A DNA stretch of 63,804 bases, filler included, from an uncultured bacterium (GTDB taxonomy: Bacteria > CAYUVA01), in assembly GCA_964448115.1 (NCBI GenBank). It is 3 parts of 3 records of this genome, joined end to end, with 100 filler letters (N's around TTAATTAATTAA, not from the genome) between each part and the next. Parts side by side here need not be neighbours in the genome. Positions count along the whole stretch, not along the records: positions 1 to 29,399 come from CAYUVA010000049.1; 2 more parts are not named here. One strand, 5' to 3'. Both the position numbers and the translations under genes were made by a program. Positions 2,855 to 44,916 of the stretch are shown here, piece after piece (within the stretch, counting starts at the first letter, position 1; every line of letters starts with the position of its first letter). The notes under the pieces were generated by a model. The model was not told the origin of the DNA and searched no databases. It saw only the letters and a program-made list of their open reading frames with translations.

Positions 2855-2965
2855 CTGTAATCGAGTAACCATCTTGGGGCAGCCGATTATATCCCGCTGT
2901 CCTACATTCACTTTCATATTCGTCTTTATCATTGCATCCATCCTCAAGATTGATGCAAAGAGATA

Positions 2966-2994
2966 TTTTTACCACAGGCATTTTATCTTGTCAA
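2966..2994 (-). promoter_or_regulatory. Putative sigma-70 promoter of the tRNA-tuf operon
   Basis: TTGACA-17 nt-TAAAAA on minus strand, ~110 nt upstream of tRNA-Thr. Confidence 0.55.
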
Positions 2995-3361
2995 CTATTT
3001 TTTGGGGAATTTTTTCGAATCGAAGCAAAAAAATGCAAATATGGCTAGTAGAGCATCAAATATCAGGCTTGTCCATTGAAAATAAAGACCTTTTTAAGGA
3101 GATCTCCCTCCAGGAGATCAGGCTCAGTCTTAAAAAGCAAAAGTAACATTTGGACAAAGCAGATCCTCACTGAATTATTATGAAAAGTTAAGCTCAATTG
3201 AAGATTAACCCTCAAGTAATGTTCCGTTTCTATCATGTCTAGTAAGAATATCGTTATCACAAGGGATAAAAACAAGAATCTATGATCCCCTATAATTTAT
3301 AGCGCAGTTAGCATACAAATATGTTTGATTTTCCCAACTCGTTTAACCGAGAACGAAACGA

Positions 3362-3374
3362 TAACTCATTGATT
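3362..3374. promoter_or_regulatory. Putative IHF binding site
   Basis: TAACTCATTGATT matches YAANNNNTTGATW exactly; AT-rich context makes chance matches more likely. Confidence 0.4.
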
Positions 3375-3500
3375 TTCAATTACTTTTTTATAATATGGGC
3401 ATATCATTACCCATCATTACCTCTATAATTTCAGCTCCATCAAAATATCTCCTGAAGAGATATGTCAATACGGCATCAATAGCTTAAGAATATGGAATTC

Positions 3501-3546
3501 ATACCATATATAGTACAATGAATATTCAAAACGCCATATATTGTGA
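3501..3546. promoter_or_regulatory. Tandem NrdR-box-like sites upstream of the dnaA-like gene
   Basis: ATACCATATATAGTAC (3501-3516) and ACGCCATATATTGTGA (3531-3546) versus consensus acaCwAtATaTwGtgt; 30 bp start-to-start. Confidence 0.6.
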
Positions 3547-3819
3547 GATGTTCTTGATAAATCTAAATATTGAATAATATTTCTCAATATTTAGCATGGT
3601 TTCAATATCGGCTGCTTTTTTATTGATAAATCCTCAATCCAGATAACATGTTCAAGCACATACACACCGTTTGCTTAAATATGGCAGATAAATTGAATGA
3701 GGCTGATAACTTATTGTATCTAAAGGCTTTATTAAGTCAATAAATTTTTATGCCCCGATTAGGATGCTGTTAAGATGTCATTGACAGCAATCGAACTTAC
3801 AAATAATTCTATTAGTATC

Positions 3820-5196
3820 ATGAGCAATTGGAAGAATTTACTTCAGAGAAGTCGTCATTTCATAGGTCCTCTTTCCTATAACATCTGGTTCAAGTATGCC
3901 GAAGTAGTAGAGGAATCGTCCCGGTTGATTCGCGTCTGCCTTCCCACCGAGTCGATCAAGAACTATGTTGAATCTCGCTACACCAAGTTATTCAAGAAAG
4001 AGCTTGCAGCAATGGGACTTGCCGATGCTAAACTAATCTTTGAGGTCAAGCAAAACGGAGACAATGCTCGTAAATTCAAGCAGTTGAATATTCTTGAAGA
4101 ACAGAAGCCCTCTGCAAAGCCAAGTGCAATCATGGCAGCGAAACAACCATCAGCCAATAACAGCCTGTTCAGGCTCAATATCAACTGCACCTTTGACAAT
4201 TTTCTAGTAGGTGATCCCAATCAATTCGCCTTCAGCACCGTATATCAGCTCGCCAGGAAACTACATCTGCCCTACAATCCACTGTATATCTACGGATCCC
4301 AGGGTGTTGGAAAAACTCACCTTCTAAGCGCCTTGGGAAACTCAATATTGACCTTGCATCCCCAACTACGCATCCTCGCTTGCAGTGCAGAGCACTTTGT
4401 CAACAGGTTCTATGAGCATCTTGACAACAGGAACATGAACGGCTTTCGAGCCATCTTCAGGAATATCGACCTTTTGATAATGGACGATATCCAGGTAATG
4501 ATCGGCAAACCGAAGAGCCAGGAGGAGTTCTTATACACCTTTAATGAGCTTCACCAGGCGGGGAAACCGGTGATCCTCTCAGCAGACAAACTACCCAATC
4601 GGTTTCCCAATTTCATGGAGGATCTAGTGAACCAGTTCCGCGGCGGACTCATAATTCCCATAGACAAGCCAGATCTCGATCTCAAGATGAAGATCATACA
4701 TTCGAGGCTTAAAGGATCGAACCTAGAACTTGACGAGGAGAAGATAAGGTATATCGCCATGAAAGGAGGGAACGATATACGCGATATATTGTCCATCATC
4801 AACTCGCTAACCGCCGAGGCTATGTTCAATGGATCGAGAAACATCAGCAAGGCTGTGATCGATAAAAAGTACGCCCAGGTTCTGAGCCAACATGCGGAGA
4901 ATGTCAGCTTCGATACCGTGTTTAGAATAACCACAGGGCACTTCAATATAAGCCCTGACCGGGTGATCTCTACTCGAAGAGACCGCTTTACGGTCATGGT
5001 GCGTGGACTTATCATGTATCTAGCTCGCAAACACACCGATCTCTCCGCTATACAGATCGCAAGAAAACTGGGGAGAAAGGATCACTCCACGGTTCACAGA
5101 GCCGTAAAGAAGATGCAATGGACAATCAAGACGGATCCAACAATAAAAACGATTGTGGAATCGCTGGTAAAGAAGATACACCAAAATCCGAGTTAG
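3820..5196 (+). CDS. Divergent DnaA paralogue (domains I-IV present, arginine finger lost)
   Basis: Domain I YNIWF, TFDNFLVGDPN, Walker A GSQGVGKT, Walker B LLIMDDIQ, QEEFLYTFNEL, domain IV GRKDHSTV; no dnaN next to it; start 3775 or 3820. Confidence 0.9.
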   Translation: MSNWKNLLQRSRHFIGPLSYNIWFKYAEVVEESSRLIRVCLPTESIKNYVESRYTKLFKKELAAMGLADAKLIFEVKQNGDNARKFKQLNILEEQKPSAKPSAIMAAKQPSANNSLFRLNINCTFDNFLVGDPNQFAFSTVYQLARKLHLPYNPLYIYGSQGVGKTHLLSALGNSILTLHPQLRILACSAEHFVNRFYEHLDNRNMNGFRAIFRNIDLLIMDDIQVMIGKPKSQEEFLYTFNELHQAGKPVILSADKLPNRFPNFMEDLVNQFRGGLIIPIDKPDLDLKMKIIHSRLKGSNLELDEEKIRYIAMKGGNDIRDILSIINSLTAEAMFNGSRNISKAVIDKKYAQVLSQHAENVSFDTVFRITTGHFNISPDRVISTRRDRFTVMVRGLIMYLARKHTDLSAIQIARKLGRKDHSTVHRAVKKMQWTIKTDPTIKTIVESLVKKIHQNPS

Positions 5197-5213: not shown

Positions 5214-5957
5214 CTATAGGTTCTTCAGAACATAACCTATCCTGAAGATTACCAGCGAGCCATCAGAGATCATGGCATTGAACTTGCTGCGAGGATATAT
5301 GATGGGTGCCTCGCCAGGGCGGTTTGGCTTTAAAAAGACCAATTCGTCCTGAACATCGATGATGCCTACCCTGATGCTGTCTTCCTCGATTGCAAGGATA
5401 ATATCTCCCGAATCCCAGTTATCTCCCGGAGAGATGATCAGCATATCCCCTTTCTCAATCTTGGGGGCAAGGAAATCATCAGGACAATGGATGGCAAAGG
5501 CGTTGGGATCGCTTATATAATGCAAATGCAGAGCATCGACCACCACTTCGGCTGGAATTAAGATACGGTCCCCTTGTCGTATAGGCTCAAAGTAAGACGG
5601 CTTTACCGATTGAAGCACCGGTAACTTATGCTTAATGCTCTGCTCATCTGAAGCGCCGCTGATCGCCAGGGTTCCATCCAGCCTGCCGTGCATCTGCTTC
5701 TGAATGCCCTGTATCTTGCGCCGCCTTTTCTCCTTTTCGATAAGATTTATAAGTATATCGGGAGAGAATCCTAGTTTCTCTGCGATCATTATGGCTGCTC
5801 GATAGCTCGGCCAGGCGCTTCCAGCCTCGATTCTACCGAAATAGCTCATGCTGAAGTTAAGCTCTTCAGCTAAGCCATGCTGGGTAAATCCAGCATCCTT
5901 GCGCTTCTTTTTTATAAACTCGGCAACGGTCAGCTCGCGATCCTCTGAGACTGCCAT
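5214..5957 (-). CDS. XRE-family HTH regulator with degenerate S24 (LexA/CI-like) C-terminal domain
   Basis: HTH IKKKRKDAGFTQHGLAEELNFSMSYFGRIEAG; S24-like AFAIHCPDDFLAPKIEKGDMLIISP; AGGAG RBS before ATG 5957. Confidence 0.8.
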   Translation of the reverse strand: MAVSEDRELTVAEFIKKKRKDAGFTQHGLAEELNFSMSYFGRIEAGSAWPSYRAAIMIAEKLGFSPDILINLIEKEKRRRKIQGIQKQMHGRLDGTLAISGASDEQSIKHKLPVLQSVKPSYFEPIRQGDRILIPAEVVVDALHLHYISDPNAFAIHCPDDFLAPKIEKGDMLIISPGDNWDSGDIILAIEEDSIRVGIIDVQDELVFLKPNRPGEAPIIYPRSKFNAMISDGSLVIFRIGYVLKNL

Positions 5958-5987
5958 GTTCGATTCTCCTGGACTCCGCTTTTTGTC

Positions 5988-6109
5988 ATGTTGATTAAAC
6001 AATAATAGTAATAATCTTTTCTGATTTTTTGTCAAGATCATGTTGGCAGATACTTAATACAAATGTTGATTTGAGTAATAATTCAACATAAATTAAGCAA
6101 ATATGTTGA
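5988..6109. promoter_or_regulatory. Five ATGTTGR half-sites (candidate operator array)
   Basis: ATGTTGA at 5988, 6063, 6103; ATGTTGG at 6040; inverted TCAACAT at 6083; overlaps minus-strand TTGACA at 6030-6035. Confidence 0.45.
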
Positions 6110-6150: not shown

Positions 6151-7824
6151 TCATTGTCCATAGATGCCACTCTCAGTCGGCAAATCCTCGAAGTAGATAT
6201 CAAAATAAGCCTCCAGTCGATCCCCCCTGGGAATCGCAGTCGCGTTCACACGCGAAATAACCTTGTACAGATCCATCAATTCTGGATCTATATAGCCATA
6301 TCTATCCTTCAACTCCTTGCCCCAAGCTGTAGTGGGCAGCATCATCTCATCCTGCACCTGCGATATCAGCTCACGGTAGTTAATAAGGCAGGCATATACT
6401 CCCTTGTTGAAGTCAACATATTGCATCCCAGGTTTCGCCATCGCTTTGTCTGTTCCATCCTGGTAGGCATCTATAACCGCATGGAGTTCATTCTCATTCA
6501 AGGATATTACCCCATATCCATCGATGGCTGCATACCCTAGGGAAACAAAAGGTAGCGGTACTGAGCCTACTTTGATTCTGTTATACTCGGAGATTATCGG
6601 CTCGAACTTTACTTGACCGGCGCCACCGGCATAAAGGTCTCTTAGCATTGAGGTTATCATATCCTCCATAACCGCCAGCTCATCTTGATCCGGCTGTTTG
6701 AACTTAAAGATTATCGATGTGCTAAATGGAACCAGTTTAAGGTTACCAGCCATGATAAACAGCTCCTGGGTGCTGACTTTTTTAATCCTTTCCATCAGTG
6801 ATTTGATGACATCTACCACCTCAGCTTGCCGTATTTGGGGTGCAGCATAGCGGTTGAAGAACTCCTTGGCTGCACTGATGGGGAGCTTGAAGCCCATGGT
6901 GCTCTGCTCGCTGAAGAACGACGGATACTCGGTCATCTCAACTGTATTGAGTATAAATCTCTCGTTCGGAGGATTTTTCAGTCTTGCTTCTGATGCGATA
7001 TGACAAGCGGAATCAGCGGTTAACGACACATAAAGCTCAATGTATTCTGAAGCCATCCTCCCCTGCCAGGAGGTTACATCCTCAACCTGCACTTTGGACA
7101 GGTCGATAAAGAGAGTGATGTTGGGGAAATGCTTGATTCCTAAGCGTTCTTTGCAACCTGATAATCGTCTTGATAGAGAATGTTCCACCTTTAAGTTAAG
7201 ATTGTCTATCATGCGCTCGGCGGATTGTCGCTCAGATGAGAAGCCTAAAAATCCCTTGTGGATGAAAAGATTGGCGCTGGGATAGCCCTTCATGGGAGAG
7301 TTGGCGCTGAAGATATCCACATCCTCGTAGCTACTTTTTACCAGCTGCGTGCTCTTTTGCGAGATGACCTTAAGGAACATCTTGCCCAGAACCGACTTGA
7401 AGCCAGTAAAACTGAGCATAGAAATCTCATTAGCTTCATAAGCAGGTTTTATATCCACAGCAATTGCGCTTTTATTCATAAACAGATTTGCCATGAAGAG
7501 GATCGCTTGCTTTGCATCCCCTTCTGCGGGCATATCCTTCAAATCACCTGGAAAATCCTTAAGCTCACCAATAGCCTTGGCAAATTGATCATTGAGATCC
7601 ATGCTATGTTCTAACTTTTCACTGGCTACCTGGTAGAAATTGCTCTCAAGAACCTTCTCAGCCAGGGGACCAATACGATTGAAGATGATAATCCCATCTG
7701 CCTGCGATGGCATTAGATTTAGCATTTCTATCTCGCTAGATGGCTCGCTTCCACGATTGGATAGGTAGAACCAAGCACCAGCAATGATAAGGACAACAAG
7801 TATGAGCAATAGAGCCTTTTTCAT
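6151..7824 (-). CDS. Membrane-anchored exported hypothetical protein (possibly DUF3352-like)
   Basis: Long ORF; N-terminal anchor MKKALLLILVVLIIAGAWFYL after GAGGAG RBS; family call tentative. Confidence 0.7.
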   Translation of the reverse strand: MKKALLLILVVLIIAGAWFYLSNRGSEPSSEIEMLNLMPSQADGIIIFNRIGPLAEKVLESNFYQVASEKLEHSMDLNDQFAKAIGELKDFPGDLKDMPAEGDAKQAILFMANLFMNKSAIAVDIKPAYEANEISMLSFTGFKSVLGKMFLKVISQKSTQLVKSSYEDVDIFSANSPMKGYPSANLFIHKGFLGFSSERQSAERMIDNLNLKVEHSLSRRLSGCKERLGIKHFPNITLFIDLSKVQVEDVTSWQGRMASEYIELYVSLTADSACHIASEARLKNPPNERFILNTVEMTEYPSFFSEQSTMGFKLPISAAKEFFNRYAAPQIRQAEVVDVIKSLMERIKKVSTQELFIMAGNLKLVPFSTSIIFKFKQPDQDELAVMEDMITSMLRDLYAGGAGQVKFEPIISEYNRIKVGSVPLPFVSLGYAAIDGYGVISLNENELHAVIDAYQDGTDKAMAKPGMQYVDFNKGVYACLINYRELISQVQDEMMLPTTAWGKELKDRYGYIDPELMDLYKVISRVNATAIPRGDRLEAYFDIYFEDLPTESGIYGQ

Positions 7825-7976
7825 TGAACTCTCCTCAGTGTGTTTTTTATGTAATATCGCATCGTGATGAAAAGGATACAATAATTACTGTCCCGGTGTA
7901 AACCAGATCATTCTGTCTGAAGCTAAGTGGCTGTAATTAAACATCTTTTTAACATTGGACAAACCTTAGCCTTACT

Positions 7977-11050: not shown

Positions 11051-12766
11051 TCACTTGTTCCTCTCCTTCCATATCACCTGTTTGTACTTCATGATCAGCT
11101 CCTTGTCGTATCCATAGCTTTCTGCCTTGTCCAACTCCTTTTCCGCCTGGTTCAGCTCTCCCTGTTTGAGCAAGTTTGTGAAATTTACAATCGCCATCTC
11201 TGCAAGCTCGCTTTTTATTTGCTCAATCCTCCCCTTAACATCGAGCACCTCGTCAATATAAACCGCCGGGTCGTGCTTTAGGGCGCGGGTATAGTAGTCA
11301 AGGGCTTTTTTGAGGCTTATCTCGCTCTTCTCCTCTGACTCCGCAAGGTATCCAAGCCTGAGTAGGGCTTTAGCCCTCATTCCATCTAGATCAAAGGTAT
11401 CCAATTTCTCCTTGGGGATATAGTTTTCGGCTATATTGAGGTAAAAAAGTGCTCGATTCTGATTCTCCAGCCTGGTCGATTTTAGATATTCCTTTGCCAC
11501 TGCGATAGCGATATTCCCGACAAAGGTCTTAGCCTGTTGTTCGTTGCCGAATGTAGCCCCAGAGCGCAATGCCTTTTTCATTTGCAGATCGAGCTTATCG
11601 AACCAGTGATAGTTATCGCCACCCATGCTTAGATTATCGTTGATATTAAATCCCCATGGCAGATACTTGCCTTTAAGCAAAATCAGGTTTTTCTTCGCTG
11701 GATTATATCGAACCATGTAGGTGCGGCTGTTTTTCATGCATAGGATAAAGAATCCGAGAACCAGTATTACGAGTAGTGCGCCCCAGAAATAGACCGCCTT
11801 GTTTCCGACAAAGACATCATCCAGCTCGGCTGAGACCCTTATTTTATCAGCCTCTTTTCTTGACTTTAACTCTTCTGCAATTCGAGAATCGATTGCATCT
11901 TTTTCTTTTCTACCCTTCTTTTTTGCTGAAGGGATCGCCTCGCCTTCATCTTCGTATAGCTTGAATCCCTTGAGCTTTCTGTCCCCCTGGTAGGCATCGA
12001 CCTCTTTTTCAAAGTTGCTTCCCTCCAGGGATATTATGGTTACATTATCCGGTGCTCCCCTTTCCTTTACCTCTGCGATGAGCTTATCAACCAGGTTAGC
12101 AGGGTCACCGGGATTGTCGATTACATACTCGAAGATCTCCTCGTCAGACATGACCCCATGCAGTCCGTCGGTGCACAAAAGATAGTGATCCGTATTGCGG
12201 TAGGGTATAGTGCTTATCTCCACCTCGACATCAGGACTTCCGCCGAGCGCACGAGTGATTATATTCTTGAAGGGTGAGCGACCCGCTTCCTCCTCGGTGA
12301 TAGCCTCGGAATCTATAAGCTCCTGAACCCGTGAGTGATCCTTGGTTACCCTCTGGATAGAGTCCTTGGTAATGCGATATAGCCTGCTATCCCCCACATG
12401 ACCGATGAAGATTGTATCATCTTCGATGAGAGCGACCACAACCGTTGTTCCCATGCCGAGCTGATCTGGATTCTTTTCAGCGTGATTAAAGATCTCCCGG
12501 TTAGCTATCTTGATCGCATTGGTGATATCCTTGATGTTGTCCCCGTAGGGATCGAGGGACTGTTCCTTCTTAGCCCTTCTGGACTCGGCGGTGCGTATGA
12601 AGTACTCGTTTATCTTATCCACAGCCAGTTTGCTCGCCAGCTCCCCGGCTGCATGACCTCCCATGCCATCTGCCACCACGAAGAGCATCTGCCTTTCGTT
12701 TATGAGCAGCGCATCCTGGTTGTTGTTTCGCTTATTGCCGGGATCGGTTTTTCCAGCAGCCTTCAT
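11051..12766 (-). CDS. PP2C/Stp1-family Ser/Thr phosphatase with TM helix and TPR-like C-terminal region
   Basis: RNNNQDA, VADGMGGH, MGTT, HVGDSR, TDGL, DNVT motifs; TM helix near aa 325-345. Confidence 0.9.
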   Translation of the reverse strand: MKAAGKTDPGNKRNNNQDALLINERQMLFVVADGMGGHAAGELASKLAVDKINEYFIRTAESRRAKKEQSLDPYGDNIKDITNAIKIANREIFNHAEKNPDQLGMGTTVVVALIEDDTIFIGHVGDSRLYRITKDSIQRVTKDHSRVQELIDSEAITEEEAGRSPFKNIITRALGGSPDVEVEISTIPYRNTDHYLLCTDGLHGVMSDEEIFEYVIDNPGDPANLVDKLIAEVKERGAPDNVTIISLEGSNFEKEVDAYQGDRKLKGFKLYEDEGEAIPSAKKKGRKEKDAIDSRIAEELKSRKEADKIRVSAELDDVFVGNKAVYFWGALLVILVLGFFILCMKNSRTYMVRYNPAKKNLILLKGKYLPWGFNINDNLSMGGDNYHWFDKLDLQMKKALRSGATFGNEQQAKTFVGNIAIAVAKEYLKSTRLENQNRALFYLNIAENYIPKEKLDTFDLDGMRAKALLRLGYLAESEEKSEISLKKALDYYTRALKHDPAVYIDEVLDVKGRIEQIKSELAEMAIVNFTNLLKQGELNQAEKELDKAESYGYDKELIMKYKQVIWKERNK

Positions 12767-13415
12767 CTAGTTCGATTCCTTCTTGGTCAAGGATATCCCT
12801 TGCCAGATTCAATGCTTCCTGTTCTTTTCCTTGTCTAAGCCTTTCAAATATATCTGAATCGATCAATTTTTCAAATAGGATCTTTCGAGCTTGCTCATTT
12901 TTAATCTGTTTTTTTATGATCTCCCGAAGATCGCTCATAAGGTCGAGAAAGATCTCGTACTCATCGCCGATTATCTCGGCAAGTTTTATGCGCAATTCTC
13001 TAGCCAGAGCTGGACTGGCGCCGCTAGTGCTGATCGCTACTTGCAGCAGTCCGCGGCGCAGGGTTGCTGGCACGATGAAATTGCAGTGCTCGGGATCATC
13101 TACCATGTTCACCAGTTTCCCCTTCTCGATCGCCTCATTGTAAACCTGTTGATTGATCATCGGCTCATCGGTGCATCCAAAGATGAGGAAGAAATCCTGA
13201 AGATCTCCAGGTTGGTAGCCTCTATTCCGATAGATGATCTCCCCTTTATCCACCAATCTTTCAATCTCGGGTATTACGGCAGGGGCGATCAGGGTAACTT
13301 TGGCCTTTGCCTCAAGTAACCCTTGGACCTTGCGGGCAGCCACCTTACCGCCACCTATCACTAGGACAGGCTTGTCGTGTAAGTCCAGAAAGATAGGGTA
13401 GTATCGGGCATTCAA
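12732..13415 (-). CDS. sirC: Precorrin-2 dehydrogenase/sirohydrochlorin ferrochelatase (SirC, CysG N-terminal type)
   Basis: YYPIFLDL, GGGKVA, NMVDDPEHCNFIVPA, ISTSGASP. Confidence 0.9.
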   Translation of the reverse strand: MNARYYPIFLDLHDKPVLVIGGGKVAARKVQGLLEAKAKVTLIAPAVIPEIERLVDKGEIIYRNRGYQPGDLQDFFLIFGCTDEPMINQQVYNEAIEKGKLVNMVDDPEHCNFIVPATLRRGLLQVAISTSGASPALARELRIKLAEIIGDEYEIFLDLMSDLREIIKKQIKNEQARKILFEKLIDSDIFERLRQGKEQEALNLARDILDQEGIELDEGCWKNRSRQ

Positions 13416-31459: not shown

Positions 31460-31518
31460 GGGGCTTTTAACCGCAAAGCATGTCCCCGCCAAGGCTGGGG
31501 AATACTAAGGCGCAAAGA

Positions 31519-31980
31519 ATGGATGCAATTGATCGAAGGCTGCTGGATATCCTGCAGCATGAATTTCCGCTGGTCAGCCGCCCTTATCAACGCATTGGTG
31601 AACAGGTCGGCATCAGCGAGCAAGAAACCATCGACCGCATAAAAAGCCTTTTCGAGCGCAACCTGGTGCGAAAACTCGGAGCATTCATCGCACCGTTCAA
31701 GATCGGCTACAAGAGCACCCTTATCGCCATGAGAGTCCCTGAAGAGAGCATCGATGATCTTCCCGAATTCTTCGAGAATCTGCGCGGGATTACCCATGTT
31801 TATCAGCGAGACCATAGGTTTAATGTCTGGTTTACCTTCATATATAAGAGTGAAAGCCAGCTTCATAGGCTCTTGGATTCAATAGAGAAAGAATTCGGCA
31901 TCTCTGATATACTGAACCTCCCTCAATTGAACCGCTTCAAGGTCGATGCCAGGTTCGATATACAGAATAATGATGATTAG
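31519..31980 (+). CDS. ahbA: Siroheme decarboxylase alpha subunit (AhbA/NirD-like)
   Basis: Lrp/AsnC-like FPLVSRPY, GYKSTLIAM, THVYQR, FNVWFT. Confidence 0.85.
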   Translation: MDAIDRRLLDILQHEFPLVSRPYQRIGEQVGISEQETIDRIKSLFERNLVRKLGAFIAPFKIGYKSTLIAMRVPEESIDDLPEFFENLRGITHVYQRDHRFNVWFTFIYKSESQLHRLLDSIEKEFGISDILNLPQLNRFKVDARFDIQNNDD

Positions 31981-32455
31981 AGAAATGAACCAAGTCAACG
32001 ATCTACAATTAGAAATCCTTAGGCAGGTGCATGATAACATACCTTTATGTCCCAAGCCCTTCGAGGCGATCGCTCGAAAACTAGGCATTGATGAACAAAA
32101 AGTGCTCGATGAGCTTGCTAAGATGCTTCAAGATGGGATCATACGCAGGTTTGGCGCGGTGATCAGGCACTACAATGTCGGCTATTCGACCAATGCAATG
32201 GTGGTCTGGGATGTGCCTGATGACAAGGTTGCTAAGATAGGAAACCGCCTTAAGGGCTACAAGCGCATCACCCACTGCTACCAGAGGGTGAGCACCCCCG
32301 AATTCCCCTACTCGCTTTATACGATGATTCATGCGAACGATGAAAGGGAGCTTGCAGCGTTTATTGAAAAACTAAAAGGGATCATCGGCGACCACCCCCA
32401 TTTCATCCTGCGAACGGTGAGGGAGCTTAAAAAATCGAGCTTCCAGGTTTACTAG
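31970..32455 (+). CDS. ahbB: Siroheme decarboxylase beta subunit (AhbB/NirH-like)
   Basis: NAMVVW, THCYQR, YSLYTMIH, ELKKSS; start approximate. Confidence 0.87.
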   Translation: MMIREMNQVNDLQLEILRQVHDNIPLCPKPFEAIARKLGIDEQKVLDELAKMLQDGIIRRFGAVIRHYNVGYSTNAMVVWDVPDDKVAKIGNRLKGYKRITHCYQRVSTPEFPYSLYTMIHANDERELAAFIEKLKGIIGDHPHFILRTVRELKKSSFQVY

Positions 32456-43389: not shown

Positions 43390-44916
43390 CTAAAGCGTTC
43401 TTATCAAAGCCTCCACTAGTCCCTCTGCGGTGTACCGCTTCGCTTCGACTATCACCTGCAAGCCATGCTCTCTTGCTGTTTTTGCGGTTACCGGCCCGAT
43501 ACAGGCAGCCTTGATCTTTGAACGGCAGTGCTTAATGTGCTCCTTGGAGACCAGGCTCATGAAGTTGTTGACCGTTGAGCTGCTGGTGAATGTGCATATA
43601 TATTGCTCGTCCTTATCCCAAAGCCCACCTATTTTTGCTTTCTGGTCATCTCTGATGACGGTTTTATAGATCGGGATCACCAGCACCTCTGCTCCCATCT
43701 CTCGCAGCCCACCAGGTAGTTCAGACGGCGCCTCAGCAGCCCTGGGGATCAGAATGCGTGTTTTTTGCTGCATATTGAGATCCTTAAATGCCTTAAGTAA
43801 TCCCCGTGATGAGAACTCTTCTTTAGGCACAAGATCTGGTTTGATGCCCCTATCAGCCAGTTCCTCGGCTGTCTTTTCACCTACTGCTGCAACGCTGTTC
43901 ATGCACAGATGCCTGGCATCGTAACCATGTTTTGATATCTCATCGAAGAATATCTTTACGCCGTTTATGCTGGTGAATATTATCCAGTTGAACTGTTCCA
44001 GTTCTGTAATCGCCTGATGAAGTGGCTCATTCGGTCTTATGGGAACGGTTTGTATGGTTGGTATGGTGATCACCTCGGCGCCATGGTACTCCAGTAGTTC
44101 TTTTAATCTCCTTGATTGATCAGGAGCCCTGGTTACGATCACTTTTTTTGCGAATAATGGTTTTTTCTCCAGCCACATTATCTGTTCGCGCAGCTTTACC
44201 ACCTGTCCGACAACCAGTATTGCAGGCGGCTTGATGCCCTCTTTTCGGGCATTTATGGCGATATCTTTTATCGTCGAGGTGATCGTTTTCTGAAACGGGG
44301 CTGTTCCCCATTGAATGAGCGCAGCCGGTGTGTTTCCAGGTAAGCCATTTGCCTGCAAGCGCTCAGCGATGTATTCGAGATTCTTTACTCCCATCAAAAA
44401 TACCAGTGTACCACCTATAGTAGCCAGCGCATCATAGTTTATCGCCTCTTGTGTCTTCTCGTCTGATTCGTGCCCGGTAATGAAGGTAACCGTTGATGCG
44501 TAATCTCGATGGGTGATGGGGATGGCTGCGTAAGCCGGCGCTGCGATGGCTGAGGTTATGCCGGGGATGATCTCGAAGGGTACATCATGCTCGGCAAGCA
44601 TCTGACATTCCTCTCCTCCACGCCCGAAGACAAAGGGATCCCCGCCCTTTAGCCGGGCAACTGATTTCCCCTCACCAGCTTTTTGAACCAGCAGTTCATT
44701 GATCTGATCTTGTAAAAGGGTATGGCTGGAAGCCTTCTTGCCAACATAGATTAGTTCTGCATCCGCCCTGGCGTACTCGAGCAGATGCGGATTGGCATGG
44801 TAATCATATACGATGACATCTGCCCTTTGGATCAGCTTTATGGCAGCTAGTGATACCAGCCCGACTGCATAGGGACCAGCCCCTATTAAATATACCTTTC
44901 CCTTTTCAGCAATCAT
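43390..44916 (-). CDS. cobA: Uroporphyrinogen-III C-methyltransferase/uroporphyrinogen-III synthase fusion (CobA-HemD)
   Basis: YLIGAGP, RLKGGDPFVFGRGGEE, then HemD IFTSINGV, FTSSSTV, IGPVTA. Confidence 0.95.
   Translation of the reverse strand: MIAEKGKVYLIGAGPYAVGLVSLAAIKLIQRADVIVYDYHANPHLLEYARADAELIYVGKKASSHTLLQDQINELLVQKAGEGKSVARLKGGDPFVFGRGGEECQMLAEHDVPFEIIPGITSAIAAPAYAAIPITHRDYASTVTFITGHESDEKTQEAINYDALATIGGTLVFLMGVKNLEYIAERLQANGLPGNTPAALIQWGTAPFQKTITSTIKDIAINARKEGIKPPAILVVGQVVKLREQIMWLEKKPLFAKKVIVTRAPDQSRRLKELLEYHGAEVITIPTIQTVPIRPNEPLHQAITELEQFNWIIFTSINGVKIFFDEISKHGYDARHLCMNSVAAVGEKTAEELADRGIKPDLVPKEEFSSRGLLKAFKDLNMQQKTRILIPRAAEAPSELPGGLREMGAEVLVIPIYKTVIRDDQKAKIGGLWDKDEQYICTFTSSSTVNNFMSLVSKEHIKHCRSKIKAACIGPVTAKTAREHGLQVIVEAKRYTAEGLVEALIRTL

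Follow-up and report, generated by a model that had tools for sequence, protein, structure and literature searches.

An uncultured bacterium encodes a full-length DnaA-like protein that lacks the box VII arginine finger and may be a non-initiating regulator

What can a full-length DnaA do without its arginine finger, the residue regarded as central to the ATP-DnaA switch by which bacteria time their replication? The question is raised by a 63.8-kb stretch of DNA from an uncultured bacterium of the lineage CAYUVA01 (GenBank assembly GCA_964448115.1; 63,804 nucleotides in three joined parts, hereafter the window). A dnaA-like open reading frame (ORF) on the plus strand of this window, at 3820-5196, encodes a protein of 458 residues plus stop codon, here called P0001, which would gain 15 residues (473 in total) if translation began at an in-frame ATG at 3775. 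Here, we propose, with a probability that we put at about 0.5 and on the evidence of sequence comparison, that P0001 is a non-initiating, DnaA-derived regulator that binds ATP and DNA and works alongside a canonical DnaA whose gene lies elsewhere in the genome.

The proposal starts from box VII. The initial annotation had described this motif, FMEDLVNQFRGGL at 4612-4650, as carrying Asp in place of R281 of Escherichia coli DnaA and Gln in place of the arginine finger, R285, and this is borne out by BLASTP, HMMER and MAFFT alignments. The BLASTP alignment to E. coli K-12 DnaA is free of gaps across box VII and places D268 of P0001 on R281, Q272 on R285 and R274 on G287 (codons GAT at 4621-4623, CAG at 4633-4635 and CGC at 4639-4641, respectively), and the same register is obtained from HMMER alignments to the DnaA proteins of Bacillus subtilis (8btg) and Aquifex aeolicus (2hcb, 1l8q). 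Among the 119 best homologues of P0001, aligned with MAFFT, all 119 have Arg in the finger column and 115 have it in the R281 column. When 1.84 billion cluster representatives were scanned exhaustively with HMMER, 20,706 proteins were returned at E <=0.001; the 159 domain III stretches taken from the best 149 representatives have Arg at the finger in 156 cases, and the three that do not all lie within two tandem-domain proteins (P0122 and P0124). The finger is likewise kept in 31 of 31 parsed Myxococcota loci among L081-L118, in four of four divergent sole DnaAs (L119, L121-L123) and in the weakest-match Myxococcota loci read (L126 and L128). On these alignments the box VII observation is confirmed, and it is statistically striking. 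Five DnaAs (P0161, P0007, P0108, P0179 and P0182, the first from a Planctomycetota metagenome-assembled genome, or MAG, by source name) have Asp, Ser or Lys at R281 and retain R285, so that R281 is dispensable in some lineages.

Could the changes in box VII be an artefact of sequencing or assembly? The DNA of P0001 has been found in one sample and one study only, as contigs and with no RNA dataset listed, and box VII is seen on a single further contig, from run X1, which is possibly the source sample itself (runs X2 and X3 do not extend their coverage to box VII). That contig, at a depth of about 10, is identical to the window through box VII and shows no variant. A read error is unlikely because, in addition to this identity, at least two base changes are needed to reach Asp from any Arg codon and the residues flanking D268 and Q272 are in register with the consensus. 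The protein is also divergent along its whole length and is nevertheless in frame and well folded in its model. We therefore regard an artefact as very improbable.

If the sequence is sound, is P0001 a DnaA? We judged membership by TIGR00362 together with PF00308, PF08299 and PF11638. The protein scores 364 bits against the NCBIfam DnaA equivalog TIGR00362, above its cut-off of 343.9, and 92.2 bits against the Hda model TIGR03420, below the cut-off of 194.8. Pfam recognises Bac_DnaA (160 bits, residues 119-279) and Bac_DnaA_C (62.1 bits, residues 365-431), with DnaA_N at 22.9 bits falling slightly below its cut-off of 24.6. The AlphaFold2 model, built from an alignment of 22 rows, has a mean predicted local distance difference test score (pLDDT) of 85.1, with domains I, III and IV folded and values below 50 solely at residues 79-116, the domain II linker. 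The four-domain layout of DnaA is thus present (domain I, linker, AAA+ domain III and helix-turn-helix domain IV), and domain III is an initiator-type AAA+ module without indels. The earlier description of a full-length DnaA with domains I-IV, Walker A and B motifs and the sensor II arginine of NDIRDI (R321) stands, the DnaA_N match just under its cut-off included, and these motifs fall in invariant columns.

Which parts of a working initiator has P0001 kept, and which has it lost? To map E. coli residues we used BLASTP to the annotated record of K-12 DnaA, with column counts over the 119 homologues. Kept are W6 (W4 of P0001), K178 (K165; Lys in 119 of 119), R227 (R214), D235 and D236 (D222 and D223), R245 (K232, still basic), D269 (D256), L290 (L277), R334 (R321; Arg in 119 of 119), D433-H434-T435 (D421-H422-S423) and a conserved Arg of domain IV (R395), which we take to be the basic-loop arginine of that domain. 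Lost, besides R281 and R285, are F46 (S45, in a column that is F or Y in 108 of 119), V211 (Y198; I or V in 106), E337 (L324; E in 118) and G338 (S325; G in 117). P0001 deviates at nine of the 44 columns conserved at 93% or more, R281, R285, E337 and G338 among them, and keeps the other 35; the median number of deviations in the other homologues is one. In E. coli, Phe46 is the high-affinity contact to DnaB (and DiaA) and V211 and R245 belong to the H/B motifs that grip the unwound strand (PMC12122000), while R285 is the arginine finger, which forms a bridge to the ATP bound by the next subunit and is required for filling the sites that prefer ATP-DnaA (PMC6727663). ATP binding and the recognition of duplex DNA hence look preserved in P0001, and the initiation-specific surfaces look altered. 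Retention of the residues that bind ATP and duplex DNA, with loss of those that contact the helicase, single-stranded DNA and the neighbouring subunit, fits a non-initiating DNA-binding protein.

In light of this pattern, what might the role of P0001 be? A non-initiating role is the most likely one, because the finger and the equivalents of Phe46, Val211, Glu337 and Gly338 are lost and the ATP- and DNA-binding residues are kept. The protein would bind ATP and, through domain IV, duplex DNA of the DnaA-box type, but it would be unable to offer the next subunit an arginine finger and would lack the residues for holding the helicase (Phe46), for gripping the unwound strand (Val211) and for flanking sensor II (Glu337, Gly338). 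Two modes of action can be envisaged. In the first, P0001 would occupy DnaA-type sites non-cooperatively, as a competitor or a transcription factor. In the second, its intact ATP face would let it enter a filament of ATP-DnaA, whose further growth it would then halt as a cap. We infer that a second dnaA exists, as well as the targets that P0001 binds and the mode that it uses. That such a protein might be a non-initiating DnaA had been suggested from box VII; the residue losses beyond box VII fit the suggestion, and the role, read from a pattern of residues, is partly supported. The selectivity of the change argues in its favour, since nine of 44 conserved columns are altered and the ATP-site and domain IV residues are kept.

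The rate of change points the same way. No match to P0001 above 33% identity was found in a word-indexed search of 5.8 billion clustered proteins, and the exhaustive scan of representatives gave none above 36%; the cluster to which P0001 itself belongs holds two member sequences (one 3,372-bp contig). A search of JGI metagenome contigs found nothing, and 401 genomes sampled from the phylum Myxococcota (one of them, G200, flagged as unpublished) gave matches at 26-34% identity only, in 388 of the genomes, about nine of which have two matches. Identity to E. coli DnaA is 28%, and the mean identity to the 119 best homologues is 28.2%, compared with 38.9% among those homologues themselves (5th percentile 28.9%). 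Is this simply the mark of an isolated host? GroEL from the same contig has a best identity of 75-76%, to proteins whose names are scattered over, among others, CSSED10-310, Omnitrophica, Nitrospinota, Deltaproteobacteria and Zixibacteria, and NusG of the window, compared across 80 loci, reaches 60-61% at best (Myxococcales MAGs); no DnaA-like gene lies in the flanks of those 80 nusG loci. Set against four of these Myxococcales MAGs, G001-G004, the window is 69-76% identical in EF-Tu (73-76% among G002-G004; G001 gave no match and is left out) and 56-61% in NusG (68-71% among the four without the close pair G001/G002, at 92%), whereas DnaA stands at 27-31% (50-53% among the four, again without G001/G002, at 71%). 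By these identities P0001 has evolved faster than EF-Tu, NusG and GroEL of its host; the host is a deep orphan, yet the isolation of the host is not enough to account for how far P0001 has diverged. No relative of the organism or of P0001 was found in any collection searched. That P0001 diverged faster than host proteins favours a regulator.

A tree of DnaA proteins makes the divergence visible without resolving descent. In FastTree, no terminal branch is longer than that of P0001 (1.64; median 0.107), and the protein is placed either as sister to P0107 (support 0.50) or as sister to P0220 (support 0.056), the latter in a group whose members include, going by source names, DnaAs of Campylobacterota and Latescibacterota. 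We read this unstable placement as long-branch attraction, and no orthologues were seen in which the box VII changes could be followed. Is P0001, then, a relic, a redundant copy of DnaA that is drifting to loss and has no present function? The longest branch, the many altered conserved positions and the lack of any orthologue found would suit such a gene, but its frame of 458 codons is intact, its fold is confident and its codon composition is native (G+C 45.8% and GC3 56.6%, inside the spread of the window at 50.0 ± 3.0% and 58.8 ± 6.1%, so that the gene looks native and not recently imported). Moreover, the 35 conserved columns that are kept include every ATP-binding and DNA-contact column checked, and the changes are gathered on one functional surface instead of being scattered. 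A relic is thus unlikely, and a gene that is not decaying (open frame, confident model, native G+C) favours a protein with a regulatory function.

Does the locus look like an origin? Upstream of P0001, on the minus strand, lie nusG, secE, tRNA-Trp, tuf and four tRNA genes, and a non-coding, AT-rich spacer of 964 bp separates them from the gene. This spacer matches no Rfam family. It contains no copy of TTATCCACA at <=1 mismatch and no canonical DnaA-box array, while the whole window has 21 such copies against 13.7 ± 3.5 expected. DnaA boxes with two mismatches occur in the spacer at background density, among them the two copies of a 13-nt sequence, TTnTTGATAAATC, upstream of the gene. The TTATC core is mildly enriched (10 copies, against 4.8 ± 2.2 in shuffles, with 14 of 500 shuffles reaching 10), and five GATAA copies of this core lie on the same strand at 3556-3705. 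No 7-mer is repeated in the spacer above the level of shuffles, the best being AATATGG with four copies, a number of at least four being reached in 212 of 300 shuffles. GC skew does not change at P0001 and is negative on either side. Neither dnaN, recF, rpmH nor a second DnaA-like gene was found in the window (main ORFs compared with Pfam; E. coli proteins as tblastn queries), so the earlier remark that the gene is not beside dnaN or rpmH holds across all 63.8 kb. This want of origin context (no box cluster, skew change, dnaN, recF, rpmH or second dnaA in the window) favours the proposal of a non-initiating regulator.

Several observations weigh against that proposal. P0001 passes the NCBI equivalog cut-off for DnaA. 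No second dnaA was seen in the 63.8-kb window, and the AT-rich spacer with its mild excess of TTATC lies directly upstream, as might be the case near an origin. How far the gene lies from dnaN tells little, because only two of the five closest genomes available have dnaA and dnaN as neighbours: the genes are adjacent in the first of these and about 3 kb apart in the other, and in the remaining three they are separated by 128 kb once and sit on different contigs twice. Other DnaAs also stray from the consensus and keep the finger: P0107 (an Alphaproteobacteria MAG DnaA by source name) deviates at eight of 43 conserved columns, a number that P0001 does not exceed when counted in that way, and P0079 at seven, R281 is non-Arg in finger-bearing DnaAs such as P0161, and the Phe46 column is not universal among homologues. 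For the capping mode in particular, the altered Glu-Gly next to sensor II lies on the ATP face that a cap would need intact. Finally, oriC-allADP, an origin rebuilt to bind DnaA-ADP equally, suppresses the lethality of E. coli DnaA(R285A) (PMC6727663). R285 had been taken as needed for filament assembly and origin unwinding; the requirement holds at sites that prefer ATP-DnaA, but loss of the residue is not always lethal.

Might P0001 then be the sole DnaA of an isolated lineage, still initiating, with its subunit contacts rewired or with origin sites free of ATP-dependent cooperativity? This is the main alternative, though we hold it to be less probable than a regulator. The suppression by oriC-allADP, the equivalog score, the folding of all four domains in the model and the AT-rich upstream region all speak for it, as does retention of the ATP-site and domain IV residues together with R214, K232 and L277, the equivalents of R227, R245 and L290. 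Two lineage-specific arginines flank the box VII helix, namely R261, where 79 of the 119 homologues have Glu or Asp, and R274, in a column where Glu is commonest; these may be charge swaps and could mark rewired contacts. The organism has no close relative (best GroEL identity 75-76%), so part of the divergence is lineage-wide, and with only about nine of the 388 matching Myxococcota-sample genomes showing two matches, most DnaA-like genes are sole copies. Against a sole initiator stand the finger arginine of every single-domain homologue examined (119 of 119, with the 31 of 31 loci and the four of four divergent sole DnaAs), the loss of the Phe46 and Val211 equivalents as well, the lack of a DnaA-box array or skew change at the gene, and a divergence far above that of EF-Tu, NusG and GroEL. 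Predicting a complex from a pair of 119-458 fragments together with ATP and Mg gave no answer (score 0.00, mark 0.42) and counts neither for nor against.

The surroundings of the gene also raise the idea that P0001 is the initiator of an integrated mobile element or of a secondary replicon. The gene adjoins a tRNA cluster and an AT-rich spacer, and beyond its stop codon is a convergent gene for a self-cleaving repressor of the CI/LexA-like type (HTH_3 plus Peptidase_S24); this gene has matches among families of phage repressors. Its surroundings, though, were found to contain neither genes for integration, partition or conjugation nor further phage families, the G+C and GC3 values are native, and it is the 5' end of the tRNA that faces the spacer, not the 3' end, where attachment usually takes place. 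A phage or plasmid origin of P0001 was rejected, since its best matches in plasmid and phage databases are ordinary DnaAs at 28-31% identity and its PHROG DnaC-like matches are weak (47.4 bits). A mobile or secondary-replicon initiator is accordingly more unlikely still than a relic.

Could P0001 instead be a regulator of the Hda kind, coupled to the sliding clamp? The idea came from QLNIL in the domain II linker, at 4081-4095, which had been likened to the clamp-binding motif of Hda. The peptide is there, but the likeness is poor and statistically weak: the pattern QL-x-[LIVMF]-[LFIM] is matched by chance in 14% of whole-protein shuffles and 2% of linker shuffles, and the clamp-binding peptide of Hda is QLSLF or QLSLPL, at the N-terminus (PMC5397184). 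Both proteins have a DnaA-related AAA+ module, and QLNIL bears some likeness to the short QL-type peptide of Hda. Hda, however, is short, lacks domains I and IV and carries its motif at the N-terminus, whereas P0001 has both domains, has QLNIL internally in a flexible linker and scores below the Hda cut-off of TIGR03420. The same source states that Hda cannot act without an arginine finger of its own in box VII (Arg153). Because P0001 has no such finger, a clamp-coupled role like that of Hda is unlikely for it, and nothing supports a tethering of P0001 to the clamp through QLNIL. As a separate observation, ordinary finger-bearing DnaAs of about 433 residues (P0016, P0025, P0031 and P0040) carry QLELF in the domain II linker, a near-perfect beta-clamp-binding pentapeptide and a much better one than QLNIL, which hints at direct contact between DnaA and the clamp in that clade.

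How does P0001 compare with the systems already described? With canonical DnaA (E. coli K-12; B. subtilis, 8btg; A. aeolicus, 2hcb and 1l8q; Thermotoga maritima, 2z4r) it shares the layout, Walker A and B, sensors I and II and the DHSTV signature; it differs in having Asp at R281 and Gln at R285, in the replaced equivalents of E337, G338, Phe46 and Val211, and in lacking a nearby dnaN or DnaA-box array. Oligomerisation at oriC reportedly needs box VII, as Felczak and Kaguni are said to have found in 2004. P0001 resembles E. coli DnaA(R285A) and the box VII mutants in that the finger is missing and the ATP site is intact, but unlike DnaA(R285A) it occurs in nature and carries many changes besides; only a redesigned origin suppresses the lethality of DnaA(R285A) (PMC6727663). 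In the literature searched, supplements excluded, we found no natural full-length DnaA without the finger and no DnaA paralogue described as such.

A parallel from our own searches is L086 of genome G005. Like P0001, L086 combines a full-length DnaA layout with a low Bac_DnaA score (153.5 bits; P0001 scores 160), shows changes in its catalytic motifs and has no dnaN close by; unlike P0001, it keeps the finger (NELQSRL) and has lost Walker B (LLLEKV), and it is not a close relative. The MAG that holds it, G005, has another DnaA-like gene also. The occurrence of such degenerate second full-length DnaA-like genes in related groups favours the proposal that P0001 is a regulator beside a canonical DnaA. 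Other unusual DnaA-like proteins came to light in the same searches. L128 is the sole DnaA-like match of genome G113 and scores 46 bits only against Bac_DnaA, L120 of genome G361 is an open frame of 853 residues with two tandem domain III modules, and two-module proteins of this kind (P0121-P0125 and others) lead the exhaustive search by bit score.

The coordinates of the gene, its motifs and its immediate neighbours are collected in Table 1.

Table 1. Features of the P0001 locus, with positions in the window.
Feature	Position	Strand	Basis and remarks
Non-coding AT-rich region, 964 bp	2856..3819		33% G+C; between tRNA-Thr(tgt) and P0001
dnaA-like ORF P0001	3820..5196	+	TIGR00362, Pfam domains, AlphaFold2
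Domain I, residues 1-77	3820..4050	+	DnaA_N 22.9 bits; model pLDDT 78-93; W4 = E. coli W6; S45 at Phe46
Domain II linker, residues 79-116, predicted disordered	4054..4167	+	pLDDT <50; variable, gapped alignment
QLNIL, residues 88-92, weak clamp-motif look-alike	4081..4095	+	shuffle chance 14% (whole protein), 2% (linker)
Domain III AAA+, residues 119-345	4174..4854	+	Bac_DnaA 160 bits; aligns to 8btg, 2hcb, 1l8q, 2z4r, 8bv3
Walker A GSQGVGKT, residues 159-166	4294..4317	+	G162, G164, K165 and T166 columns invariant
Walker B LLIMDD, residues 218-223	4471..4488	+	D222 and D223 = Asp in 119/119
Sensor I D256 (E. coli D269)	4585..4587	+	column Asp in 118/119
Box VII FMEDLVNQFRGGL, residues 265-277	4612..4650	+	model helix 267-274; D268, Q272 and R274 inside
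Sensor II block RDILS, residues 321-325	4780..4794	+	R321 kept (119/119 Arg); L324 and S325 replace Glu and Gly
Domain IV helix-turn-helix, residues 365-431	4912..5112	+	Bac_DnaA_C 62.1 bits; R395 conserved
DHSTV signature, residues 421-425	5080..5094	+	H422, S423, T424 and V425 columns invariant
HTH_3 + Peptidase_S24 gene	5214..6041	-	convergent, 18 bp from P0001 stop; CI/LexA-like self-cleaving repressor type
576-aa ORF	6151..7881	-	no Pfam or PHROG family

Downstream of P0001, the HTH_3/Peptidase_S24 gene matches phage repressor PHROGs and has no other phage genes nearby. The 576-residue ORF that follows has no relative in GTDB genomes and contains three one-mismatch DnaA boxes in about 200 bp (7257-7459), which may be due to chance; beyond it lies a gene for a ClC channel. 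Elsewhere in the window (12732-13415, 31480-32455 and 43390-44916) are a sirC-like gene, two adjacent genes resembling siroheme decarboxylases of the NirD/L type and a cobA-hemD fusion, which together suggest an alternative, siroheme-dependent pathway to haem.

What would P0001 mean for the DnaA family? The finding carries limited weight, being based on one sequence from one sample that has no relatives in which conservation might be seen. Should P0001 act as a regulator, nature would have turned a full-length DnaA with a dead finger into a cap or a competitor. If it is instead the sole initiator of its host, a free-living lineage would initiate replication without the box VII arginines and without the equivalents of Phe46, Val211 and Glu337. 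Such a protein would be the natural counterpart of E. coli DnaA(R285A), working at an origin that has no need for ATP-bridged filaments, and the filament would be dispensable in nature, a view for which an engineered E. coli origin has so far been the basis (PMC6727663). On either reading, the pattern of residues that P0001 has kept and lost would offer a ready-made set of separation-of-function alleles for DnaA.

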